Source: Armatimonadota bacterium (GTDB taxonomy: Bacteria; Armatimonadota; Fimbriimonadia; Fimbriimonadales; Fimbriimonadaceae). From it: 64,000 nt of DNA. The DNA lies in contig JAEVZK010000091.1 in assembly GCA_023392285.1 (NCBI GenBank), positions 5,208 to 69,207 on the forward strand. The letters are read 5' to 3'. A program made the translations under genes and the position numbers. Shown in pieces: positions 33,334 through 47,262 of this stretch. The first letter of the stretch is position 1; every line of letters starts with the position of its first letter. Under the pieces are notes generated by a model. That model worked only from the letters and a program-made list of their open reading frames with translations. It made no database searches and had not been told where the DNA came from.

Positions 33334-34458
33334 ATGGCGATCATTGAGAGTGGAGGCTATATCAAGCGATTGAACGAGCCTCGAATCGATGGAATTGAAG
33401 CCGAGCTGGTGCCCGACTTCAACTTCGTTTCATTGAAACCGAAGCCGGTCGGCATTTCCCCTGCCCGGCTGCGCATGCTGTGGCATGACGGCACCAAGCC
33501 CTCCGGCGCTTCTCTCCGCATTTCGTCGGAGGACGGCAAAAGCCGTAAGTTCAGAATTTGGGTGGAGAGCTCTGATAATCGTTTCCGACCCAATTGGATT
33601 CGTTGGGCGCTTCCCACTCGTCAAGCTCGGGAGCTCAGCGGAGGAGATTCGCTGGTCGCCCAGGATGAGCTGTTTCAAGACGACCAAGTGATGAATTTGA
33701 TGGTGACGGCGGGGGAGACCCGATCCGTCACGCTCGAGTTCGTAGCGAATCTCGATGGATTCACTCCGACCGGAGATTTTCCGTTCGAAATAGTGATTCA
33801 GGACATTACCGACAGCGCCAACGGTAACGCCGGAGTGCATCGGGTCAACGGGACGCTCTGCCTCACTCATCCAGATTCAAAGATCTTAAATGATCTGCCC
33901 GCCCTCTATCGCGAGGCTCTCTGGGATATGCGGGATGATGTGGCGGGGTATCAGGACCCGCCCTTCTTCGAGCGATTTCTGCTCGGTTTCGAAGATGTGG
34001 TCGAGCCGCTGCAGCAGACGCTCGATCAACTGGATCGACTCTTTGGGCCCTACTCGACGCCGCCTGATTTCGTGCTCTGGCTGGGCGCTTGGGTGGCGAT
34101 GCCGCTCGATGAGAATTGGCCCGAGATGCGTCGTCGGAAGCTAGTCAAGGAAGCGGTCAACCTCTACCGATGGCGCGGGACCAAAAAGGGCCTTTCGCGC
34201 TACCTCGAAATTTACTGCGGAGTTAAGCCAGACATTCACGATCAGCCAGTCGACGGCATGAAGCTAGGCCCTGACAACAAGCTCGGTTCAAAGACGGCGA
34301 CTCTTGGAAATGTGCCGCCGCACACCTTTGTGGTTACGGTGGCCATACCGGATTCAGAAAAAATAAAGGAGCAAACGATCCACGACATTATTCGCTATGA
34401 AAAGCCCGCTCACACCGCCTATGCGCTGCGGGTTATCAGACAAGGGAGAGGGGAATAA
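33334..34458 (+). CDS. Phage-tail-protein-I-like baseplate wedge protein (Afp12-like) with an N-terminal Ig-like domain
   Basis: ATG at 33334 (MAIIESGG), 4 nt after the baseplate J stop. C-terminal LPALYRE...FFERFLLGFEDVVEPLQQTLDQLDRLFGPYSTPPDFVLWLGAWVAMPLDENWPE..RRKLVKEAVNLYRWRGTKKGLSRYLEIY matches the P2 gpI-type tail protein domain. Confidence 0.8.
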   Translation: MAIIESGGYIKRLNEPRIDGIEAELVPDFNFVSLKPKPVGISPARLRMLWHDGTKPSGASLRISSEDGKSRKFRIWVESSDNRFRPNWIRWALPTRQARELSGGDSLVAQDELFQDDQVMNLMVTAGETRSVTLEFVANLDGFTPTGDFPFEIVIQDITDSANGNAGVHRVNGTLCLTHPDSKILNDLPALYREALWDMRDDVAGYQDPPFFERFLLGFEDVVEPLQQTLDQLDRLFGPYSTPPDFVLWLGAWVAMPLDENWPEMRRRKLVKEAVNLYRWRGTKKGLSRYLEIYCGVKPDIHDQPVDGMKLGPDNKLGSKTATLGNVPPHTFVVTVAIPDSEKIKEQTIHDIIRYEKPAHTAYALRVIRQGRGE

Positions 34459-34461
34459 ACC

Positions 34462-35622
34462 ATGCCGATAGAGGAACTTATTTCGCGCCGAATTACCGGC
34501 ATATCACCATTTAACGAACTGCCGATCGATGCCGACATCTGGCGCGAGGCTCACGGGCACCACCATACCCACCGGCACCTTCACTCGGTTTCTGTACACC
34601 GTCCGGGCATCGTCTATGGTCTGGAAGTCGTGGTCTCGAAAAAGGATCGTACGCTTGTGGTTGCTCCCGGAGTAGGCATCGACAGCGACGGCAACACGCT
34701 GCTGCTCAGCGAACCGGCTACGTTTTTGATGGAAGAGAAAGGGCAGCTTTACATCACGATCTCGTACGAGGACAACGTCGACAGCAAGTCGGCGGTGACC
34801 GTCGGCGGGGGCAAGAAATATTTCCGCTTGGTCGAGGGCCGTCAGGTGATCGCTACCAAGGATCTGCCGAAAGGCGCTTATCTCGAGTTGGCTCGAATCG
34901 ATCGGTCTGGCAAAGACAAGCCCATCAAGGAGGCCGCCAATCCGTTCGATCCGGCCGAGGACGAGTTGAACCTCCTATATCGCCAGCAAGCGTTTCCTGC
35001 GTGCTACGCAGATGGCGGCATTGGCGAGGTCGTCTTCCTGCCAAAGTCCGATCCATCTGCATGGAAGCCGAATCGGGCTGGACTTTACGGCTTGGTTCGT
35101 GAGGCGAATGGCTGCGGATTTCATCTTGATTTCAGCGGTCTCTACAATCTTCGAGCGCCGGGTCCGGAAATGCCGATATTTCTCTATGTAGCCTGTGCGG
35201 GCGATTTCCAGCCCCTTTCCGATGAGCAGGTGAGTGGGCTCAAGAAATACCTCGACAACGGGGGCACACTTGTGGCTGAAGCCAGTAAAGGAGATGCCGG
35301 TTTTGCGAAAGCTTTTGCGGATGTCTCGAAAAAAATCGGCGCAACGATGAAAAAAGTGGCGAAAGGAAGCCCGTTGCTGACGTCGCATCATATGTTTTCC
35401 GCGCCGCCGGCCGGAGCGCAGGATAAGGGCGAGGTTCAGGCAGATCTGGATCGAGGCGTGATCTTATCGACCTTCGATTACGGGGCGGCGTGGCAAGGCG
35501 AAGTGGCTAGCCCGGATGCAACGGATGCGCGAGATCGCATTCGTGCAGCCCAAGAATTCGGACATAACATCATTGCGTTCGCGGCCAAAAGGAAAAGGCT
35601 CAGCGAATTAGCTCGACTATAA
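34462..35622 (+). CDS. CIS-locus protein: N-terminal baseplate-associated-looking domain fused to a DUF4159-like C-terminal domain
   Basis: 386 aa. The C-terminal half (MPIFLYVACAGDFQPLSDEQVSGLKKYLDNGGTLVAEASKGDAGFAKAFADV...LLTSHHMF) resembles the DUF4159 pattern 'P.l.m.G...f.ls..E...Lr.YL..GG.l..D'. Confidence 0.5.
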   Translation: MPIEELISRRITGISPFNELPIDADIWREAHGHHHTHRHLHSVSVHRPGIVYGLEVVVSKKDRTLVVAPGVGIDSDGNTLLLSEPATFLMEEKGQLYITISYEDNVDSKSAVTVGGGKKYFRLVEGRQVIATKDLPKGAYLELARIDRSGKDKPIKEAANPFDPAEDELNLLYRQQAFPACYADGGIGEVVFLPKSDPSAWKPNRAGLYGLVREANGCGFHLDFSGLYNLRAPGPEMPIFLYVACAGDFQPLSDEQVSGLKKYLDNGGTLVAEASKGDAGFAKAFADVSKKIGATMKKVAKGSPLLTSHHMFSAPPAGAQDKGEVQADLDRGVILSTFDYGAAWQGEVASPDATDARDRIRAAQEFGHNIIAFAAKRKRLSELARL

Positions 35623-35631
35623 GGAAGATTA

Positions 35632-38160
35632 TTGAGGACAAGTCAGAAGAGAAGTTGGTCGAACCCGACTCCCGGCACCATACTGGATGTACCGCAGGGA
35701 GAAACGGCTGAAGTTCGGTTCACATGCAATAACGACCAGCAAAAGGTGGTTCGTTTTGAGCTGGAAGCTTCCGGCCTCGGTTCTTGGGCGCAAGCTACGA
35801 CCGAGCATGCAGTGGCCCCTTTCGATACTTCTGACCTGATATTCGAAATCACCCCGAAAGCGACCGCAGACCTCGGAGACTACTCCTTTACGGTGAGACT
35901 CACCTGCGGTGGCGATCTCGTCGAGCCACTTGGCGAACGGAATTTAATCCTTAGAGTCGTGGAAGGAGCGGCACCTGAGCCAGTCACTCCCGAGCCACCT
36001 GCTCCTGTTCCGGTGAGCGAACTCGCGCCGCCAGTTGAGGCGGAGAAGCCTAAACCCAAGGAAAAGAAGGCGGCGGCTGAAAAGCCGAAAGTTGAAGAAG
36101 AAGTCGCTAAGACTCCTAGAACCACTGGCCGAAAGAAGGCTGTCCCGGAAGAGTCGTCAGCAGTGAATGGTTCCACAGCGGTTCAGCCCCCGGTTCCGAC
36201 GCCCGATCCGCAACCCGAACCGGTACCGCCGATTCCGACCCCGGAGCCAATCCCGCCTACTCCTACACCAGAGCCGCCCTCGCCTCCAATCCCGGTTGCG
36301 GAGGAGCCGACCATCGTGGAGGAGGCACCCGTCGCTCCAGAGCCCGAGGTCAAGTTTGCGCCAGAACCCGAGCCCGAGCCGGAACCCAAATTTGCTCCTG
36401 AACCCGAACCTGAACCTGAACCTGAGCCGGAACCCGAACCCGTTTACACGCAGCCGGAGCCGGAAATCGTTTACGTCGAGGAGCCAAAGCCAGAGCCTGC
36501 GCCAGATCCGGTGCCCGTCTCCAGACCAGAGCCGAAGGTGGTGAAAGTCGTCGACCTTGGTCCACAGCAGGTGGCTTCGGCTCCGACCGCGTGGGAAGAA
36601 GAGGATGAACGGGCGCACAAGCTCCAAATTGAAGCCGATGCAATCGTAGGAAATCCCAAAGAGGGAACCACCATCTACGCCCGCCCAGGCGAAAAGGTGC
36701 TTGTTCGGTTTAGCATCAAGAACGAACAAGGTGGTGTGCGCACCTACGTCATTCAGGAGGATCGAGCTCTTCCTCACGAGTGGATCGCTCTGGTCCAGGA
36801 TCAAGTGAACATCACCCCAGGGGGAACCGGCGATGTCTCGTTTATCCTAACGCCGCCGCTGTCGGCTGAACCCGCCACTTATCCGTTCAACATTTCCTAC
36901 GGCATCCTTGGCCAGCCACTGACGCCGGTTTACCTCCAGCTCTGTGTGCAAGCCGCGCCCGCGGTGAGGTTGAAGGCAAAGGCGACCACTTCGCGCGTGT
37001 TCGTTCCGTTTGCGCGCTCGCCAGAATTCGATTTCGTGGTCGAGAGCCAGGGCAACGCCGACACCGCATACCGAATCGGCGTCAAGGATCCGCTCGCAGA
37101 GAAGGACGATAAAGGACGAACGAAGGGGCCGGACGACCTCTATGAAACGCCGACTTGGCGGTACATCTTCGATCGCGAGTTGGACACGCTTTCGTCTCCC
37201 AGTGCCAACCGCGCGCCAACTCCGGAGAACCACAAGATGAAGCTTGTGCGAAAGGGTGTTTGGTGGTTTGGCTGGGTCGAGAAGCATAAGATGAACGTCT
37301 CGGCGAGGCCGGTGACGGATCAGGAGAATGGGGGCAAGGTCGACAACTCGGTTGAGATCGTTGGTCGCCGATGGCGAATTTTCCCTCTGCCGGGTTTTCT
37401 GATGATTCCGCTACTCATCATTGCCTTTATCCTGATTGGTTCGGGTGCGGATAACCTACGTGTCACCAACGGAAAGATAAGCGACGACGGCTACTATTAC
37501 GTGGTGGGCGATAAGCTCGGTGACACGAACCTGCCGGTGAAGCTCAAATGGAATGCACCGTTCTATGCGTTCTTGAAGGGCAGCAAACTGGAGGCAGGAG
37601 CGGGCGCGCCGCTCGACATGAACCGGGGTAACGCAACCGATGTCGTCGCTCTCCAGGATTACGGCCAATCGAGGAAAATAACCTACAGCGTCGGTTCTAA
37701 GTTCTCTTGGGCCAGAAAGGAAGTTAATGTTCGGTTCGTCCCGCTGAAAACGGAGGGCCAGCTAGCGATTCTCGATGGAAACGGGGTCAAACAGGTTGGC
37801 GAGGCGAGCGAAGGCAAGATTGGTGAAGATCAGGTCCCGACGCGAGACCGCGAAATTGTGATTCCGGTAAAGAAGGGAGGCACGACTCGACTGAACTTTC
37901 GCAATCTCACTGGGGTGAAGGGCATAAACGGCCAGCAAGTTGTCTTGTGGACTTTGCATGCGCCCGAAGGATTCACGATCAACGACTTCTTGTATAAGAA
38001 TGGAGACAACCAGATTGTGAACCCAGCTGCGACGGTTACGGCCAAGATTCAGCACAACGATGACGGCCAAGTACCGGAGGACGGCGCGGTGTGGGAACTC
38101 ATGAGCACGGACAGCTACTATCAGCACTTAAAGATTCGATTCAAGGTGGTGGGCAACTAA
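35632..38160 (+). CDS. 842-aa mid-chain single-pass membrane protein: two Ig-like (CARDB/NEW3-like) domains split by a Pro-rich (PE)n linker, a TM helix, and a C-terminal beta-rich region
   Basis: TTG start and no N-terminal signal peptide. [12 protein letters not shown]...[13 protein letters not shown] and [13 protein letters not shown]...ATYPFNISY look like Ig-like domains. [12 protein letters not shown] is duplicated. The TM segment [22 protein letters not shown] is encoded at ~37384-37446. Confidence 0.6.
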
Positions 38161-40418
38161 TGAAGCTGCTTCACACCGAAGTCGATGTCGTGCCGGGGCG
38201 GAAGCCGCAGAAGCAGCCTCTTCCCGAGGGTTACGTCGGCGCGGGAACGGCCGTGCTGCGCATTACCAACACAACCCACCGGCAGAACGCGTACACGATC
38301 CGCCTGCGGTGCGAGGAACCCTACTGGCAGGATGCTTGGTATCAGCTCGCCGCCTTACCGCCTTCCGGAGGCGAGGAAAATCAGCCGCCGCCTGGAAAGC
38401 CGGACCAGCTTGGACCGCGCAATCAGTCGCTGACCATCTATGTCAAAGATGGTGGGACGCGGGATATCTTCATCTCCTATTTCGTTCCGGAAAAGAGCGA
38501 GTGCCGAGCGGGTGCCTATCCGGTCAAGGTCATCGTCGAAACTCGGATTTTGAGCGACGATCCTCAGGTGGCTCGACAGGAGCGAATCACCGAATTGCCA
38601 AGCACCGTCATCGTGCGGCCTTTTTACAAGTGGCAGGTGAGCTACTCGCCGGAAGAGCGAAAAGTCGGATTTTTTAAGCGTGGAAAGGAATTTGAGGTCG
38701 TCGTCGACAACCAGGGCAATGACTGGCTCTACTGCGACTTGAAGATGCCTCGACCCCAAAACGTGTTGGTGGAGACGCCCACGGCAAGAATGGCGGTGCC
38801 TCCTCCCGAGCCGGGCGCAGATTCGGTGAGGACGGTCCCGTTCAAAGCTACCAGCCGGGTTAAGACGATTCGGGGCAACACCCAAGCGCTGCCTTTGCCC
38901 ATCACGGTGCAGCGTGTGGACGCCCCCACGGTACCCCCGCTTCCCGAAGACGCAATGCTCGGGCCATCCGGGGCAAACGTCAAAGCGGCGGTGTGTCATT
39001 CGGAGACCACCGACGTTGGAGTTTCCGATGTTCAGCCGCAGCTGATGTATCATCCGCTGATTCCGGCCACCTTTATCGGCTTTTTCCAAGCAATCGGACG
39101 GAATATCAAGGCCCTAATCATTACGGTGATCGGCTTGATCATTGCCTGGAACATGGCCGTATTCTGCTATGAGTATTTCATCCGATCCATCAGCGAATTT
39201 CACTCGATGACGACTGAGGTTCAGTTGAACAAGGTGTTCTACGTGCGTGGGCGCAACTTACAAGGCTCGAAGATTATCGTCTTCGACGAGACCGGCAAGA
39301 ACCAGATCGGTGAGCCAATCACGCCTAAGTACACAACCGAGTCGATCACGAGCGATAAGGTAGGGGTCATCTTGACCGATCCCTCGCTCGATCATAAGAA
39401 GATTCGGATCGGCGCTCAGCGCTATGGCGCTTTCACGTTCCTTCGCGCTTTCCTGCCGATCGAGAAAGACCCTTCGGTTATCCAGGTGGGCAAGGAGACC
39501 GTCACCCGAGGAACGGCAGCCGGTTCGATCAGCCCGCAAATTCCGCCTGGACAGCCGTTGACGATCGGCGGAGCCAACTTCGGCGACGAGAAGGGCAAGG
39601 TCATGCTAAACGGAAACCAGGCACCCATCCTGAGTTGGACCGACGGCAAAATCACGGTCAAAGTGCCACAGGCCCTACAAGCAAGCGGTGAGTTGATTAC
39701 GGTGCTCGTGTTCGACCCGAGCAACAATCCGATCAACGTCTCGCCGAATCAATTCCAAGTGGCGCTGCCAGTTGAATCAACGGCGGGAACGACTGGCGGC
39801 GACGTGCCACCTCCCGACACCACGGCTGGATCAACCGGTGGCGCTCCCGACACGAGCACTGGCGGAACCGGTGGCGATCCGACCTCATCGGGCTCGACGG
39901 GCGGAACATCCGGTGGTTCAACCGGAACCACAGGAGTCTCTCTTACGCCTCCCAAGGGCTATGCTTCGCTTCTTCCGGATACTCGCGCTGCTTATGTGAA
40001 TGCGGTATCTCAGGCGAGCGGACCATCGGCTGGCCAACTGGCGATCAAGGCTTATGCACTCGCGTCGGTCGGTAAGCTGGACGACGCCAAGCAGGCACTC
40101 ATCCAATCGAATCAGAAGCTTGGGGATAAGAGCCAAGGAGTCGATGTCGCGCTCTTCTATCTGGCTCAAGCGCGTGTGGTTGAAAAGCTGAACCCAGACA
40201 AGGGAGATGCGGCCTACGCCGCCGCTGATGAGAAGGCGAATGCAGCCGCGCCAGGCTTCGCGTTCAACGACATCGCGATCGCTCGCTTCAAGATCAGCCA
40301 AGGTAAGTGGGGAGAAGCGCGAGCGCTTTTGACCAACGCGTCTCAAGGCAATCTCTCAGCTGCGGAAAAGGCGACTGTAAACAAGATGATGCAGCAGGTA
40401 CAGAGCCGGTCGCAGTAG
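38160..40418 (+). CDS. 752-aa mid-chain single-pass membrane protein: N-terminal Ig-like domains, TM helix, IPT/TIG-like domain, Gly/Thr/Ser linker, TPR-like C-terminus
   Basis: ATG 38160 overlaps the upstream stop (TAATG). The ORF-track start at 38091 lies inside the upstream gene. TM IKALIITVIGLIIAWNMAVFCYEYFI is encoded at ~39103-39183. IPT-like GQPLTIGGANFGDEKGKVMLNGNQAPILSWTDGKITVKVP. Linker STGGTGGDPTSSGSTGGTSGGSTGTTG. Confidence 0.6.
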   Translation: MKLLHTEVDVVPGRKPQKQPLPEGYVGAGTAVLRITNTTHRQNAYTIRLRCEEPYWQDAWYQLAALPPSGGEENQPPPGKPDQLGPRNQSLTIYVKDGGTRDIFISYFVPEKSECRAGAYPVKVIVETRILSDDPQVARQERITELPSTVIVRPFYKWQVSYSPEERKVGFFKRGKEFEVVVDNQGNDWLYCDLKMPRPQNVLVETPTARMAVPPPEPGADSVRTVPFKATSRVKTIRGNTQALPLPITVQRVDAPTVPPLPEDAMLGPSGANVKAAVCHSETTDVGVSDVQPQLMYHPLIPATFIGFFQAIGRNIKALIITVIGLIIAWNMAVFCYEYFIRSISEFHSMTTEVQLNKVFYVRGRNLQGSKIIVFDETGKNQIGEPITPKYTTESITSDKVGVILTDPSLDHKKIRIGAQRYGAFTFLRAFLPIEKDPSVIQVGKETVTRGTAAGSISPQIPPGQPLTIGGANFGDEKGKVMLNGNQAPILSWTDGKITVKVPQALQASGELITVLVFDPSNNPINVSPNQFQVALPVESTAGTTGGDVPPPDTTAGSTGGAPDTSTGGTGGDPTSSGSTGGTSGGSTGTTGVSLTPPKGYASLLPDTRAAYVNAVSQASGPSAGQLAIKAYALASVGKLDDAKQALIQSNQKLGDKSQGVDVALFYLAQARVVEKLNPDKGDAAYAAADEKANAAAPGFAFNDIAIARFKISQGKWGEARALLTNASQGNLSAAEKATVNKMMQQVQSRSQ

Positions 40419-40455: not shown

Positions 40456-42192
40456 ATGAAGGGGAACATGAGCAGAGAAGTTATGTCGCATCGATTGCGA
40501 TTGTGGATGGTTGCAGCATTGCTCTCCCTGTCCCTCTCGGCTCTGGCCGACAAGGCGGTTGTAGTCGGCGTGCAAGAGTATGCGCCACTCGTTGCGGCCA
40601 GTACGCTTCGGGGGTGCTTGAATGACGCGAACGCAGTCGCAGACGTGCTGCGCAAGAACAAGTTCGACGTCATTCAGCTATCGAACGAAAAGGCAACTCG
40701 CCAGGGGATCCTCGACACCCTCGCCGGATTGATTAAAACCTCCAAGGCGAGTGAACGCTTTGTGTTTTATTTTGCGGGACATGGCCGAAGAACGCCTCAT
40801 CCTGCCCTGATGCCTCACGATGCGACCAGTGATGGGAACGACATCACCACCGACGACCTGAATGCGGTGATCTCAAAGATTCCGGCGAGGAGCCGAACGG
40901 TCATTCTGGATGCTTGTTTCTCAGGCGGAATGGCGGCGGGTGAGATGGCGAGAGGCATCAAGGACGATGGGTTGACCGCGCGTTTTTATGAAGACGCCAC
41001 GGCTCAGGCGAGAAGTCTCGATTTCGGGCCAGCGAAAGCCCCGGTCAACAACCAGGACACCAATGCGAAGCTGGAGAATGGCTCGAACATCTGTTATTAC
41101 ACGGCCTGCACGAGCAACGAACAAGCGTTGGAAGGCTCCTTCGATGGTCAGCGGCACGGCCTGTTCACCTACGCCCTGCTCAGTAATCTGAAAGATGATT
41201 CGGAGCCTTGGGGTGAAGTGCATAACGGGGTCAAGACCCAAATGCAGGGCAAGCTGGAGAATACGGGACGCCAACAAAACCCGACGATTTCCAAGAACTA
41301 CCTAAACGCCCACGCGTTGGATAATGACATCGCGAAGCCGGTAGAACCGAAGCCAACCAAGACACTCATCGACGTCTGGAATTTAGAGAATCCTGATCCG
41401 AAGAAGATCTCACTAGAGCTCTCTCCGAATTCGAATGTTTACGAAGCGGGACGCAATATTGCGATGACCGCGACGGTTGGCCAAGAGGGCTACCTCGTCA
41501 TCTTGGGTGAAGTCGATGGCCACTACTACCAGTTCTTTCCCGCTGGCAAATTCGATCCCGACGACGCTCACGTCAAGGCGGGCAAAATTCCCTGGCCATC
41601 GCCGGGAAACGTTCTGTTTTTCGACAGCTTCGGGGCCAATCAGGTGAAGGCGATCCTCTTTTCCGATACTCAGAAGGCAGCTAAGCTGCTGGATGCGATG
41701 CGAGAGATGAACGGTGCCGCCGACATCAGCAACAAGGATCTGATTCTCACCCGATCTCTCAATGAGCCGGAATTCACCTCGCGCCTCAGCGTGGCGGTTT
41801 CGGACAATCTGGTCGGCGGGAGCCGGTTTAAAGACTTAAACGGCTTGATCAAAAAGGTGGCTGCCCAAGACGCGCCGCTGACAAAGCGGATATGGGAGTT
41901 GATGGGGCGGGTTGCGACCAGTAAGCCGCATCAGGATTGGATGGCGAACACGGATTTCAATCAGGAAATCACCTTAAAGTCACGTGGAGTTTTCGTGGCG
42001 CTCCTTAACCGTGTCCTGCAATCATTCCCGCTTTACGAGGAAGATGTGTTCCAGGGGATCAAACTCGACAAGAAGACTTCCGATCTGTTAAAGAAGAATC
42101 CAAAGGGTGACGATCTGATACGCCTGAATAGGCAACTTCTCGTCGCTGCTTTTCCTGCCGAAGTAAATCCCGACGAGGCGAATTCCAAATGA
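40456..42192 (+). CDS. Secreted caspase-family (peptidase C14) protease with a DUF4384-like domain
   Basis: 578 aa. Signal peptide LWMVAALLSLSLSALA. Catalytic dyad contexts FYFAGHGRR (His codon 40780-40782) and VILDACFSGG (Cys codon 40915-40917). DUF4384-like YEAGRNIAMTATVGQEGYLVILGEVDGHYYQFFP. Confidence 0.8.
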   Translation: MKGNMSREVMSHRLRLWMVAALLSLSLSALADKAVVVGVQEYAPLVAASTLRGCLNDANAVADVLRKNKFDVIQLSNEKATRQGILDTLAGLIKTSKASERFVFYFAGHGRRTPHPALMPHDATSDGNDITTDDLNAVISKIPARSRTVILDACFSGGMAAGEMARGIKDDGLTARFYEDATAQARSLDFGPAKAPVNNQDTNAKLENGSNICYYTACTSNEQALEGSFDGQRHGLFTYALLSNLKDDSEPWGEVHNGVKTQMQGKLENTGRQQNPTISKNYLNAHALDNDIAKPVEPKPTKTLIDVWNLENPDPKKISLELSPNSNVYEAGRNIAMTATVGQEGYLVILGEVDGHYYQFFPAGKFDPDDAHVKAGKIPWPSPGNVLFFDSFGANQVKAILFSDTQKAAKLLDAMREMNGAADISNKDLILTRSLNEPEFTSRLSVAVSDNLVGGSRFKDLNGLIKKVAAQDAPLTKRIWELMGRVATSKPHQDWMANTDFNQEITLKSRGVFVALLNRVLQSFPLYEEDVFQGIKLDKKTSDLLKKNPKGDDLIRLNRQLLVAAFPAEVNPDEANSK

Positions 42193-44315
42193 AGCGCTTG
42201 TTCTCTGCCCTTCTTGTGGCGCTTTCGGCCATCGCGACGGCGCAACAGGATCTGCCGAATCTCGTCGTCGATATGAATGATCGGCCCGCCGAACTCAAGC
42301 CGGTTATGCTCGAGTTGAATGAATATCTGGTGCCGTTGCGCCCGGCCGTCGAGTTGCTGACCGGAGGCAAAGGTGCCCTCGGAATCGACGGAAAGACTTA
42401 CACCATTAGCATCGATAACAAAGTGCTCGTCCGCATCCCTCAAGAAGGTGGGGGAAAGGAAGCCCTGATTTATTCCGAAACCGATTCGAATCCAGTGAGG
42501 CGGCTCTCCATGGAAGATTTCCCGCACGAGGTGATTACCAAGGAGCGGGGTCCAACGGCGATGGTCGACCTGGATTTGCTTGCCGCCTGCTTGGGAGTCA
42601 CCGTCGACATCGATGGCAAGCGGCTTTCGCTTTACACGACGGATTACTGGTGCGGAAAAATCGGCATCAGCGCGGACAAGGTTGAAAATCGGCTGCAGAA
42701 AGGAATCGCGCTCGTACCCGACTTTGGAGTGTCGCCACCAGCGAAAACATTGCTCTTCTGGGTCAGGCCACCCGTCACGTCGTACGTTCAGGCGTTTCGG
42801 TTGAATGACAACGCGCCGGAGCCCATGCTTGGCATCAATGCGCTGGATGACGAGGTCGATATCCTGACTCCGGGGAACCGTCCGAAGATGCGCCAAGCCG
42901 ACCAGCAATCGCCGATCAGAGCGGAAACCTACAACTATGGGTCGGAAGTGGGCAAGGTGGCCACCTACGTCGCGGTGGTCCTGAAGAAGGATGTTGGAAT
43001 GGCAAGCCCGATCGAAGCGATCAATTCAGGGGCCGCAGGCGACGATTGGGCGGTGATCGGAATCCGTCAGCGCGTCGGACGGATGCCGATCCTTTTTGAA
43101 AATCGAGAAGTCTTGCCAGGGGAAGACATCGGTGCCTTTGCGACTCGAAACAAGACGACGCCCTCGGTGATTAAATCCGTGAACGGCCTGCGGACTGGTG
43201 AGAAATTACGTCCCAAATCAAAGTTGGCGGTCATTGTTGGCTTGGATGAAAACGCGATTAGGCTGATGCAAGCCGCACCGTTCAAGATCACTGGACTTTA
43301 TGAGGTTCAGCCGGGCGAAACTCTCAAGGACCTCGCTCACTCCTGGGGTGTGAGCGAAGATGAAATATTAGCAGCGAATACTACTATTCCTCCAGGAGGC
43401 GAACCTGAACCTGGCGATCTGATCAACGCGATCGCAAAGGATGCTCCCTCCAATCCAGGCAATCCCAACCCGCAGCCCGTTAACCCTTCGATCGCCAAGA
43501 ACGAATCGGTCGCCTTTATGGGCACTGCGGTTGCCACTGCGCCACTCCAGCTTCGGGAGACATCAGTAGCTGGCTCTACGGTCGTTGGCTCGGCGCCCAA
43601 GAATACATTCGTCGAGCTCGTCGGCTACATGCCGGCTCAGCAGATGTATCGAGTGCGAATCGACGGCGGAGTGATTGGTTATGTTCCTGCCAGTTCCCTG
43701 CGTGTTCGCGCTGGAAGCGGGGGCGCAACGGTCGTTGCGGCGAACATCAATCCCTCCAATAATCCGGTTGCGAACGAAGCTCTCAAGTATTTGGGAACCC
43801 CCTATGTTTGGGGAGGCAACGGCCTGACCACCGGCATCGACTGCTCGCACTTCGTCGCTCAGGTGTATACAAGGATAGGCTGGCCCGCTCCGCCCGCTCC
43901 GGTCACGACTCAGGAGACCATCGGCGACATCGTTCATTACAAGCCGGGACAAGCGCGTCGAGCGGGTCGAACGATCATCCTCCCCAATGCGGTGGTCGCA
44001 CCGCGTGCTTCACCCGACCTGAGAACCTTGCAGCCGGGCGACCGAATTATCTTTCAACGTGGCAACACGGATGCGTCAGGTACGCGCCACACGGCTATTT
44101 ATATCGGACGAGTCCCACCTGCCTGGCAGAAAAAATTCGGCGATATTCCGTGGGCATTCGTTCATGCCTCCTCATCCCGAGGCGTCACCGTCAGCAGCCT
44201 CACTCAAAAATATTATTGGAATATCTATAAATTTAGCTGCCGCAGCGCTCACCGCAAGACCGTTGCATCCACTCCTGACGAGGCCATTGCATCCGCGATG
44301 TTGGGTGGCAAATGA
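42189..44315 (+). CDS. Secreted multidomain peptidoglycan hydrolase: amine-oxidase-N-like stalk, LysM, SH3b, NlpC/P60 (C40) peptidase
   Basis: 708 aa. Signal peptide MKRLFSALLVALSAIATAQQ. LysM YEVQPGETLKDLAHSWGVSEDEILAAN. SH3b-like TFVELVGYMPAQQMYRVRIDGGVIGYVPASSL. NlpC/P60 YLGTPYVWGGNGLTTGIDCSHFVAQVY (Cys codon 43842-43844), HTAIYIG and FVHAS. The start overlaps the caspase stop (ATGA). Confidence 0.85.
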   Translation: MKRLFSALLVALSAIATAQQDLPNLVVDMNDRPAELKPVMLELNEYLVPLRPAVELLTGGKGALGIDGKTYTISIDNKVLVRIPQEGGGKEALIYSETDSNPVRRLSMEDFPHEVITKERGPTAMVDLDLLAACLGVTVDIDGKRLSLYTTDYWCGKIGISADKVENRLQKGIALVPDFGVSPPAKTLLFWVRPPVTSYVQAFRLNDNAPEPMLGINALDDEVDILTPGNRPKMRQADQQSPIRAETYNYGSEVGKVATYVAVVLKKDVGMASPIEAINSGAAGDDWAVIGIRQRVGRMPILFENREVLPGEDIGAFATRNKTTPSVIKSVNGLRTGEKLRPKSKLAVIVGLDENAIRLMQAAPFKITGLYEVQPGETLKDLAHSWGVSEDEILAANTTIPPGGEPEPGDLINAIAKDAPSNPGNPNPQPVNPSIAKNESVAFMGTAVATAPLQLRETSVAGSTVVGSAPKNTFVELVGYMPAQQMYRVRIDGGVIGYVPASSLRVRAGSGGATVVAANINPSNNPVANEALKYLGTPYVWGGNGLTTGIDCSHFVAQVYTRIGWPAPPAPVTTQETIGDIVHYKPGQARRAGRTIILPNAVVAPRASPDLRTLQPGDRIIFQRGNTDASGTRHTAIYIGRVPPAWQKKFGDIPWAFVHASSSRGVTVSSLTQKYYWNIYKFSCRSAHRKTVASTPDEAIASAMLGGK

Positions 44316-46030
44316 GACGGCTGTTCCTACTCGCGGCCTTGGCGTTATCGGCGTGGGCTGGAGCGGAGCGGTATGCGATCTTGGTCGCGGTCGACAGCTA
44401 TCCTATCATCAAACCGCCGCAGCGGCAGCTCTCGGGCTCCGCCTATGACCTTCGCCTAATGGGCAAGATGATGGAGTTCTATAACTTCCAGGTGACCCAG
44501 CTTGCTCGCGGTGATGCGACGCGAGGAAAGATCATCGAGCAGATGTCTCTGCTGCAGCCTAAAATCAAGGCTGGAGATGAGGTGGTGTTTTACTTCTCGG
44601 GACGCGGGTCCGTCGCTCCACCAGTCGACGCTCCGAAGGCGAAGGTAAATTTCGAGCCGACGATCGTGCCCTATGACGGAAAGGAAACGGTCGTCGATTA
44701 CGACATCCGCATGAGCCGCCTCGAAGATTGGGCGAAGTCGATCGCCGAGCATGGCGGGAATGTCACCTTCATCATCGACGCGAGCTTCCAGTCGATTGCA
44801 CGAGACGACGTTGGCCGTCCATATAACCCGACCCCGCGCACACTTACCCGCAAGTCGACCTCCGACGGAGCGGTCCGCGACAAGCCTTACATGGGCCCTG
44901 GAATCTATCTCGGAGCTGTTCCAACCGGCGGCAGTGCGTACGAGTACCTCGTGAACACAAGCAACAACACTTGGGCAGGAGCCTTCACCGACATGCTCGT
45001 GAACGAGGTGATCAGCAAACTGCGAAACGGAGAATCTCCCACCTACTCGTCCGCCATGCGGGAGATTGAAGCGTATTTCAAAGATAAAGTCCGCCAAGAC
45101 TACATGCCGGGTTTGGCACCCTACCCCTTCACGAAAACTTTGGTGGAAGAGGCGCAGACCTATGACCGCCCCTTGTTCGGTGGCCTCAACCCGCAGACCG
45201 TGCCGCCGCCTCAGCAAGCCGAAATTCAGCATATGGACGAGGATCGGAAGGCCCGTGAGCGGAAGCTCCGCATCGGGCTAAGCTTTCCGGCGGTCCGCGA
45301 CAGGGCGTCCACCCGTGGAGACGGGTTGGAGGATGGCCGTGATCCGAAGCTGGTAGAAGACTTCACCAAGAGCGTGAGCGCGAATCTTCCTTATGCCGAG
45401 GTCGTTCCGGTTGGCGCGCCGGTGGACACCGTGGTCGCTTTTGTCAAGCAGGCCAATGGATCGTTCGAGGCTCGCATATTTGGTGACGAGGTCGATCAGA
45501 AGCGCAATCTTCGCTTTCCGGGAGCGAACGTCGAGCAAATGATGGCGGCTGGACTACGCGATCAGCTGGAACGGCAGGCACTTACGGTGAAGCTCTTCAA
45601 GCTGATCGATGAGGGCAAAGGAACCCTCGACGGTGTAGATCTTAGCGTGGAAAAAGACACCTATGCGCCATCGGATCGCTTTGCGCTTCACTTTAAGACC
45701 GGTGCCCCATCCCTCCTTTACGTCTTCGATCGAGACGATGCGGATGGCATTACTCAACTCACCTTCCCAACGATGGGCGCGACCGAGAATCTGCTTCCTG
45801 CGGGAGGCCGCGATTTCACGCCCATGATTGCGGAAGGCAGCCCCACCGGGAAAATGATGGTCAAGGGTCTCTTCGTCGAACCGTCCCCCGACCTTCCCTC
45901 CATCGAGGGGACCGATGAAAAGACGTTCAACGAAAATCTGCTCAAACACCTTCGAGCGCTAGTGCCCTTGATCGAGGGGAACAAGCTGAAATGGTTTGCC
46001 AAGGAAATTAGCCTCACGATCAAGCCGTGA
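44312..46030 (+). CDS. Secreted caspase-fold paralog with a substituted catalytic dyad (pseudo-caspase) and a DUF4384-like domain
   Basis: 572 aa. Signal peptide MRRLFLLAALALSAWAGA. Same architecture as 40456..42192, but His->Arg (FYFSGRGSV, codon 44603-44605) and Cys->Ser (FIIDASFQS, codon 44783-44785). The start overlaps the upstream stop. Confidence 0.7.
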   Translation: MRRLFLLAALALSAWAGAERYAILVAVDSYPIIKPPQRQLSGSAYDLRLMGKMMEFYNFQVTQLARGDATRGKIIEQMSLLQPKIKAGDEVVFYFSGRGSVAPPVDAPKAKVNFEPTIVPYDGKETVVDYDIRMSRLEDWAKSIAEHGGNVTFIIDASFQSIARDDVGRPYNPTPRTLTRKSTSDGAVRDKPYMGPGIYLGAVPTGGSAYEYLVNTSNNTWAGAFTDMLVNEVISKLRNGESPTYSSAMREIEAYFKDKVRQDYMPGLAPYPFTKTLVEEAQTYDRPLFGGLNPQTVPPPQQAEIQHMDEDRKARERKLRIGLSFPAVRDRASTRGDGLEDGRDPKLVEDFTKSVSANLPYAEVVPVGAPVDTVVAFVKQANGSFEARIFGDEVDQKRNLRFPGANVEQMMAAGLRDQLERQALTVKLFKLIDEGKGTLDGVDLSVEKDTYAPSDRFALHFKTGAPSLLYVFDRDDADGITQLTFPTMGATENLLPAGGRDFTPMIAEGSPTGKMMVKGLFVEPSPDLPSIEGTDEKTFNENLLKHLRALVPLIEGNKLKWFAKEISLTIKP

Positions 46031-46059
46031 TGCAATAAACTACGAGATAGAGGATATTC

Positions 46060-47205
46060 ATGCTAAAGAGGATTTTATTGGCGGGCATTCTGGCGGCTTT
46101 AACGCTGCCCGTATTCGCCGCGCCACAGCAGGACAACAGTGCCAAGTACAAGTCGGCAATCGCATGGCTCCATAAGCTGGAGCCGCAATTTTCCGCAGAG
46201 ACCAAGGAAATGGTTCCGTCGATCGAAGCGATCTTGGAACGGTATTACATGCATCCGGATGAGCTTCGGGCGAGCGAAAAGTCAATTGCAGAAGCTTTTA
46301 TCGCCACGATGCCTGAGGAAGGGGATGGCTTAAGCGGTCGAGGCTCAGCCGAAGATCGCATGAAGGAATTTGAGGGCTTGCTCGGCTCTTCTGCTCCGAA
46401 GCCAGCACCCGCAAAGGCGCCGGTAAAGAAGCCTGCGAAGAAGACTACGGCAAAGAAGCCGCCTGTGAAGAAGCCAACGCCGCCGGTGGTTCGCCGCCCA
46501 AGTACGGCCAAGTTCAAAATTCCAGGCATCACGGTACGGCCAAGCTTCAGTGCGGTGGAACGAGCCGCTCCTGGCGGCAGCCGCATCGGCGCGGTGATGG
46601 TGTCGATCGATGGCCGCAAGAAAACCGTGATCGAAATTTTGTCTCAGTCGGGTGGACTTTCTCTTCAGAAGCGAGCTCAAATAGTTGCCAATCGAATGAC
46701 CGCTCTGTCGAAGAAAAATCCGCTTTGGTGGACCACGGTTAAGGGTGGCACCGCCAAAGGGGAGGCGGTCGTCCTTGCCAGCGGTGCCCCAAGCGGATTT
46801 CTGGTGACGGCGGACAAGCAGTTTGCAAGTGAATGCGGAATGTCGCCTTCGAAGCTGGCATCCACGCTCGCGATGAAGATCCGGAATACTTTTGACCCTG
46901 ACCGCGGGGACGACTTTGGCGGGCGAGATACGACTCCGGAGGATCTGCGGCAAGCCGCGATCGACTTGCGTCAAGAAGGCGACGAACTCTATTCGACCTC
47001 TCCTGCCCAGGCGGAATCCAAATATCTGGCGGCAATTCAGAACGATTCGTCGTATCACCTCTCTTATTTGAGGCTTGCGGACATGTACAAGTCGCAGGGC
47101 AACACGGAGAAAGCCAAGGCCATCCTAAACCAAGGTATGGCGGTTGCGGCGATTACCGGCGAACAGCGCCAGGAACTCGAAGCGAAGCTAAAGAGTTTAG
47201 GCTAA
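46060..47205 (+). CDS. Secreted protein with a Lys/Pro-rich linker and TPR-like C-terminus
   Basis: 381 aa. Signal peptide ILLAGILAALTLPVFAAP. Linker KPAPAKAPVKKPAKKTTAKKPPVKKPTPP. C-terminal TPR-like YLAAIQNDSSYHLSYLRLADMYKSQGNTEKAKAILNQG. Confidence 0.6.
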   Translation: MLKRILLAGILAALTLPVFAAPQQDNSAKYKSAIAWLHKLEPQFSAETKEMVPSIEAILERYYMHPDELRASEKSIAEAFIATMPEEGDGLSGRGSAEDRMKEFEGLLGSSAPKPAPAKAPVKKPAKKTTAKKPPVKKPTPPVVRRPSTAKFKIPGITVRPSFSAVERAAPGGSRIGAVMVSIDGRKKTVIEILSQSGGLSLQKRAQIVANRMTALSKKNPLWWTTVKGGTAKGEAVVLASGAPSGFLVTADKQFASECGMSPSKLASTLAMKIRNTFDPDRGDDFGGRDTTPEDLRQAAIDLRQEGDELYSTSPAQAESKYLAAIQNDSSYHLSYLRLADMYKSQGNTEKAKAILNQGMAVAAITGEQRQELEAKLKSLG

Positions 47206-47229
47206 CAACCCAAGCGCGTTTTGACATTT

Positions 47230-47262
47230 AGCCCCGTTCCTGCAACGGGGCTATCCTTTTAA
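47230..47262 (+). terminator. Rho-independent terminator closing the long plus-strand gene array
   Basis: Perfect 9-bp stem AGCCCCGTT (47230-47238) / AACGGGGCT (47244-47252), 5-nt loop, followed by ATCCTTTTAATT. Confidence 0.65.

Follow-up and report, generated by a model that had tools for sequence, protein, structure and literature searches.

Two Ig-like membrane proteins linked to a Streptomyces-type contractile injection system in Armatimonadota are candidates for its membrane docking or firing control

For the contact of cytoplasmic phage-tail-like machines with a membrane, a single factor has been characterised so far. CisA (SCO4242), reported in 2025 for Streptomyces and other actinomycetes only, is a membrane protein required for contraction of the cytoplasmic contractile injection system (CIS) of Streptomyces coelicolor (CIS-Sc); it is absent from purified particles and predicted to bind the baseplate protein Cis11 via its largely unstructured cytoplasmic part, a binding partner that is as yet unproven (Casu et al. 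2025, PMC12237407). In the thylakoid-anchored CIS (tCIS) of Anabaena, anchoring is due to the Cis13 fibre, which carries a transmembrane (TM) helix, together with an extension of Cis12 (Weiss et al. 2022, PMC8894136). Here, we analysed 64,000 nucleotides of an Armatimonadota genome (the window; assembly GCA_023392285.1, contig JAEVZK010000091.1, positions 5,208 to 69,207 of the forward strand) that carry a complete CIS operon with sheath, tube, VgrG, PAAR, gp25, Baseplate_J and P2_I genes, and focused on the products of two consecutive genes downstream of the baseplate genes, which we call protein A and protein B. We consider it rather probable that A and B act with a soluble DUF4159 protein encoded just upstream and with a lineage-specific extension of Cis12, a wedge protein, as a module that docks a cytoplasmic, Streptomyces-type CIS to the membrane or controls its firing. 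The locus would represent a second solution, non-homologous to CisA and found in a diderm phylum, that combines folded immunoglobulin (Ig)-like cytoplasmic domains with a matching Ig-like extension of the wedge. These folded domains may also be easier to use for binding tests and structural study than the disordered N-terminal region of CisA.

Judged by its protein sequences, the operon is of the CIS-Sc type (subtype IId-like) and closest to the cytoplasmic Streptomyces CIS (PDB 9GTP). The best solved relative of its Cis11 is 9gtp_1K (E 3.5e-116), with the next system following at E 6e-11, and that of its sheath is 8bky/9gtp (E 1.9e-130), in line with an earlier note on this DNA that had named the CisA-dependent CIS of Streptomyces as a comparison. 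No fibre family was matched in the operon (Pfam, NCBIfam, PHROG). Beyond the components of CIS-Sc, this lineage has a Cis12 extension of ca. 205 residues, the DUF4159 protein, A, B and a set of exported proteins encoded directly downstream (the exported module). The genome, which the source names of homologues assign to the Fimbriimonadaceae, contains one CIS locus, and no CIS was found in any of 14 control genomes; it also encodes an Omp85/BamA protein, and the organism is therefore a diderm with a periplasm. Our literature search found no paper on CIS in Armatimonadota/Armatimonadetes or on DUF4159 in CIS.

A and B belong to this CIS on phyletic and synteny grounds. Full-length B, A and a high-scoring Cis11 occur in the same 16 of 301 Armatimonadota genomes, spread over four families, and in none of the other 285; the chance of two such 16-genome sets coinciding is about 7e-27. 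Four further genomes have a distant Cis11 only (37% identity) and neither A nor B. The order Cis11-Cis12-DUF4159-A-B is kept in every locus for which upstream DNA is available (L001/L002, L003, L004, L005, L109, L110 and L111), including loci with B homologues at 30% identity and one, P0281, that is detectable by profile alone (E 2.8e-6), and in nine loci the DUF4159 protein is always encoded between Cis12 and A. In these loci, the A-like and B-like gene products all match the profile of their family and contain one TM segment, placed as is typical of that family, while the DUF4159 proteins contain none. The link to the CIS that had been suspected from the window alone is borne out, as an exclusive one, by co-occurrence and gene order.

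In the list of open reading frames (coordinates in Table 1), gene A begins with a TTG codon 9 nt past the preceding stop, with AGGAAG upstream, and gene B, counted from its ATG, overlaps gene A as TAATG (38158-38162); both start codons agree with the N-termini of homologues in the family alignments. An N-terminal hydrophobic segment or signal peptide is absent from both proteins by Kyte-Doolittle scan, the maximum over ten residues within the first 45 being 0.24 for A and 1.43 for B as compared to 2.3-2.9 for four exported proteins encoded downstream. Each protein has exactly one strongly hydrophobic segment, at residues 584-603 of A (nt 37381-37440, Kyte-Doolittle 2.55, helix 588-603 in the model) and 316-340 of B (nt 39105-39179, Kyte-Doolittle 2.40). 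AlphaFold2 models, built as monomers with the family alignments (m152af7c60b15 for A and mccc311f04672 for B), show beta-sandwich, Ig-like domains in the N-terminal parts of both; the predicted local distance difference test (pLDDT) is 73.5 overall and ca. 88-93 in the domains of A, and 85.5 for B. On the missing signal peptides, the single helix and its coordinates, the overlap of the genes and the Ig-like N-termini, the earlier note was correct. It had also placed the helix about two-thirds along both chains, which is true of A (at 0.68 of the chain) and wrong for B (0.42), positions that are typical of the two families. Likewise, the C-terminal succession of a TIG domain, a Gly/Thr/Ser linker and a TPR-like end that it had given to both proteins is found in B, while A ends in two beta-sandwich domains without a family match. 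As whole proteins, A and B showed no significant similarity to each other in pairwise BLASTP.

Both proteins are predicted to be bitopic, with a cytoplasmic N-terminus and a periplasmic C-terminus, as already envisaged when their Ig-like parts were first noticed, and this prediction is supported in several ways. No signal peptide stands ahead of the 583 (A) or 315 (B) residues, including folded domains, that precede the helix. Within 15 residues of the helix of A, Lys and Arg together average 3.4 on the N-terminal and 1.3 on the C-terminal side, and the N-terminal side is richer in 18 of 20 sequences. Members of the B family are fused to a TIR domain at the N-terminus (P0049) or to PASTA (P0087) and YARHG (P0050/51) domains at the C-terminus, the latter two being typically extracytoplasmic, and in related proteins, Ig repeats of this kind are preceded by Ser/Thr kinase or FHA domains and followed by a TM helix (see below), which places such repeats in the cytoplasm. 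Conservation follows the same division, with mean identities of 65% in A-D2, 53% in A-D3 and 58-60% in B-D1/D2 for the cytoplasmic domains, and of 36-40% in A and 29-32% in B for the periplasmic ones, which are also swapped among homologues. Binding of a conserved partner on the cytoplasmic side, combined with adaptation to the envelope or to signals on the periplasmic side, would be expected to produce such a pattern.

For protein A, we found 21 homologues, none of them annotated, and no family in Pfam, NCBIfam, PHROG or PADLOC. Its N-terminal head A-D1 is homologous to A-D2 (hhalign 99%, E 7e-18), and A-D3 is weakly similar to B-D2 (hhalign 73%, 23 columns). The tether between A-D1 and A-D2 differs greatly in length among homologues, and a WWFGW..PVTD..RWR block in the A-D2/D3 region is invariant in the family alignment.

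Protein B has 68 homologues and contains a TIG domain (PF01833; residues 456-533, Pfam E 2.8e-8, 34.1 bits against a gathering cut-off of 20.9) that is missing from A; outside of it, no family was found in Pfam, NCBIfam, PHROG or PADLOC. In the PDB, the B profile matches the TIG-like domain of cyclodextrin glycosyltransferases, and apart from this domain the family profiles of A and B retrieved low-complexity matches alone. A search of 1.84 billion representative sequences with a profile of the cytoplasmic module of B yielded 111 proteins, with 77 clusters at E<1e-30, and nearly all of these 77 strong matches have the module at residues 1-345 followed by diverse C-termini. The TPR-like end is exchanged for PASTA (P0087), YARHG (P0050/51) or TPR_16 in different homologues. 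We note that locus L004 (8774-9964) has an extra gene for 396 aa between A and a PASTA-bearing B; its product matches the B profile at E 4e-164 and is a shortened B paralogue in which only the cytoplasmic module and the TM helix remain, followed by a short tail. Furthermore, a solitary gene at L006:389-2830 encodes a B homologue (P0049) that carries a 270-residue N-terminal TIR domain and has lost the TPR end; its upstream 388 nt are non-coding and its neighbours are unrelated. The TIR domain had been expected at the C-terminus as an "effector" and is placed at the N-terminus by the alignment, and P0049 resembles a membrane sensor in which the B scaffold bears a TIR effector.

A possible link of B to the baseplate is found in Cis12. 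Compared with S. coelicolor Cis12 (9gtp_E, 190 residues), the protein aligns at residues 218-381 of the listed open reading frame only, and the part before it is an N-terminal extension of ca. 205 residues (33334-33948) with an Ig-like portion at ca. 33664-33948, followed by the P2_I core from 33949. This extension is conserved in five loci and absent from the Cis12 of CIS-Sc. Residues 86-131 of B-D1 match it (hhalign 92.8%, E 4e-7, 46 columns), so that the repeat motif which the earlier note had seen in the gpI-like wedge protein (GETRSVTLEFVAN...GDFPFEIVIQD) is a real though short likeness. Pfam searches with ten domain slices of A and B (E up to 5) gave sub-threshold Ig matches only (NPCBM_assoc and Ig_VWA7, E ~0.15). 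The top PDB matches in Foldseek were ASH-type Ig proteins of the ciliary central apparatus and the SPD-2 domain of CEP192, all with low TM-scores of 0.1-0.2.

Weak but significant relatives of B-D1/D2 (P0282, P0283, P0291 and P0278; E 1e-4 to 1e-6, limited to residues 98-260 of B) carry the same Ig repeats, flanked by Ser/Thr kinase or FHA domains on one side and by a C-terminal TM helix on the other. P0282, picked by its likeness to the Ig module of B alone, proved to be the product of a fibre-slot gene in a further CIS locus (L112), where this gene comes immediately after those of Cis11 and an FHA-bearing Cis12. In this locus (L112:5564-19227, GCA_975970865.1), Cis12 is fused to an N-terminal FHA domain and is followed by four large proteins that combine Ser/Thr kinase and FHA domains, the same Ig repeats and TM helices. 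They share with B the class of cytoplasmic Ig repeat (SRAGxYPF and NxGN motifs; faint Pfam matches to FixG_C, HYDIN and Cep192), the adjoining TM helix and a gene position after Cis11 and Cis12, in their case directly after, but differ from B by their FHA and Ser/Thr kinase domains and by having little or no ectodomain. We found no description of FHA/kinase-Ig-TM proteins in a CIS fibre slot in the papers searched. The arrangement suggests phosphorylation-controlled docking, and the recurrence of the Ig-TM theme suggests a broader class of such proteins.

How do A and B compare to CisA? The best 120 homologues of the window's Cis11 are Armatimonadota-type sequences only; Streptomyces CIS loci were retrieved with a degenerate DNA pattern derived from the 9gtp_E alignment, and 40 Streptomyces CisA homologues were aligned. 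In S. coelicoflavus (L051), a CisA homologue of 483 residues is encoded directly after Cis12 and consists of a zinc ribbon (Zn_Ribbon_1), ca. 250 disordered residues and a second CxxC motif resembling a zinc ribbon, followed by a TM helix and an F5/8-type C domain (PF25302). A and B occupy the corresponding slot after the baseplate genes, where extracellular CIS (eCIS) keep their tail fibres, in the closest CIS type, and like CisA they are bitopic with the N-terminus inside and the C-terminus outside, in their case by prediction only. Protein A in particular shows the same layout of a small folded head, a long disordered tether, a juxtamembrane domain, one TM helix and a beta-sandwich ectodomain. 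Homology was rejected, with the 40-sequence CisA profile reaching hhalign values of only 0.1-1.7% against A, B and nine domain alignments and BLASTP E-values above 6. The earlier comparison with CisA therefore stands as an analogy of gene slot and layout, and fails as homology (hhalign < 2%). Unlike CisA with its zinc ribbons and PF25302 ectodomain, A and B match neither, as their cytoplasmic domains are Ig-like and their ectodomains of other kinds; two proteins stand here instead of one, accompanied by a DUF4159 protein and a Cis12 extension that CIS-Sc is missing; and the host is a diderm.

The tCIS of Anabaena offers a different parallel, in which the products of genes downstream of the wedge genes hold a CIS at an internal membrane, as A and B would do here. 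In both systems Cis12 has a lineage-specific extension, which in the tCIS is involved in the connection. However, Cis13 of the tCIS forms a trimeric fibre that has its TM helix at residues 122-154 and lacks an ectodomain, whereas A and B consist of Ig arrays and carry large periplasmic parts, and the target is the thylakoid membrane there as opposed to the cytoplasmic membrane here.

Taken together, we infer a physical docking of the CIS to the inner membrane via A and B that might proceed as follows. The conserved cytoplasmic Ig modules would bind the periphery of the baseplate, either directly, via the related Ig-like domain on Cis12 or via the DUF4159 protein, with the latter two as the most likely partners. 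The D1 head of A on its disordered tether of ca. 215 residues could capture particles, and B-D1/D2 next to the membrane could serve as a membrane-proximal platform. In this way, A and B would bring the baseplate to the inner membrane, where contraction would be licensed. The earlier note had likewise proposed a tether of the baseplate to this membrane and, with it, firing from inside the cell, both of which are still hypothetical. On the other side, the periplasmic domains (beta-sandwiches, TIG and TPR-like) might read or bind the wall and envelope as well as the co-encoded exported caspase and NlpC/P60 proteins, and the state of the envelope would thereby be coupled to docking and firing. The data on A and B are compatible with a static anchor of the tCIS or T6SS (type VI secretion system) kind and equally with an adaptor or trigger that acts, as in the CisA type, transiently and in dependence on a signal. 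More tentatively, and with considerable doubt, bitopic ASH-type Ig proteins and a DUF4159 "TssK-like" connector might be the general, so far undescribed membrane receptor of Streptomyces-type cytoplasmic CIS outside the actinomycetes, with the periplasmic ends in Armatimonadota wired to an exported caspase/wall-hydrolase module as a trans-envelope firing switch.

Several observations weigh against a docking or firing-control role of A and B. The likeness between B-D1 and Cis12 spans the said 46 columns only, and structure searches with Foldseek (PDB, BFVD) returned generic Ig arrays, i.e., ciliary ASH-type proteins and cadherins, and no functional homologue. The charge flanking the TM helix of B is neutral (Lys and Arg averaging 1.95 on the N-terminal and 2.08 on the C-terminal side), so the orientation of B rests on the other arguments given above. 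A TIR-fused B homologue exists outside any visible CIS context (L006), and the B scaffold can therefore function without a CIS. Finally, Ig-TM-Ig proteins are widespread beside mreBCD, and the architecture alone is therefore not specific to CIS. This paralogous family of 512-600 residues occurs at L007:4997-6643 (G090:C1) and in about 50 other Armatimonadota genomes with the same plan, in that two Ig-like domains at the N-terminus (FixG_C E 8.8e-9, HYDIN-like) are followed by a single TM helix and by Ig repeats in the periplasm; the L007 gene adjoins purH-mreB-mreC-mreD and its product matches residues 95-220 of B at E 1e-6 to 1e-11. The family may be the housekeeping ancestor of the CIS-linked proteins.

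The main alternative, unlikely in our view yet the most serious one, is a variant of docking with another mode of action, namely a static trans-envelope anchor as in the T6SS. A and B would form a permanent complex, functionally like TssL/TssM, with the DUF4159 protein in the role of TssK; the baseplate would be kept at the inner membrane, and the tube would be fired outwards through the periplasm into neighbouring cells, with NlpC/P60 opening the wall. T6SS membrane complexes require wall-remodelling enzymes, and a wall hydrolase with LysM and SH3 domains is presumably co-transcribed in this diderm organism. The weak fibre-type (CIS13) likeness at the N-terminus of the DUF4159 protein fits as well, as does B, which has no long tether so that its Ig pair sits at the membrane. 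Another point in favour is that the subtype-iv T6SS of Amoebophilus is an eCIS-like machine whose anchoring proteins are unknown. Nevertheless, the parallel to TssK with TssL/TssM is a functional analogy only, that of a soluble connector (possibly the DUF4159 protein) between the wedge and inner-membrane proteins. A, B and the DUF4159 protein match no TssJ/TssL/TssM or other T6SS family in Pfam or NCBIfam, and neither an outer-membrane lipoprotein partner or other outer-membrane component nor a recycling ATPase was identified among the proteins scanned. The closest relative of the system is moreover the free-floating, self-killing CIS-Sc, and capture or triggering would account better than a rigid channel for the caspase-type partners and for the disordered, 215-residue tether of A.

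We regard it as distinctly less likely still that A and B regulate the CIS or a periplasmic caspase module as sensors or signal transducers of the envelope without docking, i.e., that their periplasmic domains sense damage to the wall or envelope while the cytoplasmic Ig modules oligomerise and signal to a cytoplasmic partner. The exchangeable, sensor-like periplasmic ends (PASTA, YARHG, TPR), the orphan B homologue whose CIS partner is replaced by a cytoplasmic TIR domain, and the related Ig repeats in kinase/FHA membrane proteins could all be read in this way. Yet the cytoplasmic domains lack an enzymatic or known signalling fold, their genes are strictly linked to baseplate genes and not to a regulator, and the related Ig-like extension on Cis12 of the same lineage points to a structural contact.

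Very improbable is a role as fibre-like parts of a released extracellular particle that would be mounted like Afp13/Cis13, with the helix serving for retention before lysis or insertion into a target membrane. It is true that the genes of A and B are in the tail-fibre position, that their C-terminal domains vary as in receptor-binding proteins and that the tCIS fibre Cis13 itself has a TM helix (PMC8894136). However, the models of A and B contain no coiled coil, trimeric shaft or fibre-type N-terminal domain, and neither protein matches NCBIfam CIS13_fam or a PHROG tail fibre. What is conserved is the N-terminal Ig array, while the variable part lies past the TM helix, and the "receptor-binding" end would therefore be across the membrane from the baseplate. 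That A and B are unrelated envelope proteins that merely happen to lie beside the CIS operon, as the paralogous Ig-TM-Ig family beside mreBCD elsewhere in Armatimonadota genomes might suggest, is contradicted by their co-occurrence with the CIS (16/16 and 0/285), by a gene order fixed in nine loci across deep divergence and by gene coupling through overlap or 3-9 nt spacing within an operon that reaches 47205, and has next to no chance of being true.

Table 1. Features of the CIS operon in the window, with the domains of proteins A and B (window coordinates).
Feature	Position	Strand	Details
Sheath	start 14085		CIS operon
Tube	start 16010		CIS operon
2140-aa protein	start 17154		CIS operon
Tube/LysM	start 27895		CIS operon
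VgrG	start 28550		CIS operon
PAAR	start 30403		CIS operon
gp25	start 30792		CIS operon
Baseplate_J / Cis11	start 31200		CIS operon
Cis12 / gpI-like wedge protein	33334..34458	+	374 aa from ATG after the Cis11 stop; Pfam Tail_P2_I E 1e-11
Soluble DUF4159 protein, first tail-fibre slot	34462..35622	+	386 aa; Pfam DUF4159 E 2.5e-10, aa 240-374
Protein A, predicted bitopic membrane protein	35632..38160	+	842 aa; open reading frame, start, AlphaFold2 model
A-D1, N-terminal Ig-like "head", predicted cytoplasmic (aa 8-110)	35653..35961	+	beta-sandwich, pLDDT ~88; homologous to A-D2
Disordered Pro/Glu-rich tether of A (aa 115-331)	35974..36624	+	pLDDT 35-48, no secondary structure
A-D2 (aa 337-439) and A-D3 (aa 446-581), juxtamembrane beta-sandwiches, predicted cytoplasmic	36640..37374	+	AlphaFold2; best-conserved part of A
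TM helix of A (aa 585-603)	37384..37440	+	Kyte-Doolittle 2.55; helix in model
Predicted periplasmic part of A, two beta-sandwiches (aa 607-705, 711-840)	37450..38151	+	pLDDT ~90
Protein B, predicted bitopic membrane protein	38160..40418	+	752 aa; open reading frame; AlphaFold2 pLDDT 85.5
B-D1 (aa 1-152) and B-D2 (aa 158-254), Ig-like pair, predicted cytoplasmic	38160..38921	+	AlphaFold2; most conserved part of B; followed by an extension
Short helix (aa 305-314), then TM helix (aa 316-340) of B	39072..39179	+	hydropathy, AlphaFold2
Predicted periplasmic beta domain (aa 345-445) and IPT/TIG (aa 454-534) of B	39192..39761	+	Pfam, model
Disordered Gly/Thr/Ser linker (aa 537-594) and helical TPR-like end (aa 600-751) of B	39768..40412	+	model; exchangeable module
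Exported module: caspase, NlpC/P60-LysM-SH3, second caspase-fold protein, TPR protein	40456..47205	+	Pfam; N-terminal hydrophobic signal-like segments in all four
Terminator-like hairpin, strongest in region	47229..47253	+	10-bp stem, 6 GC pairs, T-rich tail; directly after TPR gene

The gene junctions of the operon are overlaps or gaps of 3-37 nt (Table 1). The DUF4159 protein has neither a TM segment nor a signal peptide and no counterpart in PDB 9GTP. Its residues 34-134 weakly resemble NCBIfam CIS13_fam (E 3.5e-4; 19.9 bits, far below the cut-off of 370), and it is possibly the connector from baseplate to membrane; it may be a fibre-derived, TssK-like connector in which the fibre has been replaced by the DUF4159 domain. 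The genes of the exported module are joined by tight or overlapping junctions and are also found after B in L001/L002, and their products are possible periplasmic partners of A and B. The hairpin downstream of them is suggestive of the end of a ca. 33 kb CIS operon starting at the sheath gene, though such sites are no commoner than in shuffled sequences.

Some loci deviate from this arrangement. At L110:7626-15891, the A-like protein bears a YARHG domain, and B is followed by a caspase with VMAP-C and an AAA_5-type ATPase in place of the caspase/NlpC-P60 set. At L109:12569-14491, the VgrG gene lies downstream of B rather than upstream of gp25, and the A/B pair is thus embedded among structural genes. 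Among cultured species, Capsulimonas corticalis has a Cis11 that is 58% identical to that of the window, and our model may be testable there provided that A and B are present; both are present in G184, a single-contig genome of 7.6 Mb. Lastly, the Cis11 matches in two genomes of one genus (G184:C1:7310293-7312404 and G284:C89:3385-5502) have one in-frame TGA each, which could be an effect of the alignment end, a sequencing feature or a real interruption.

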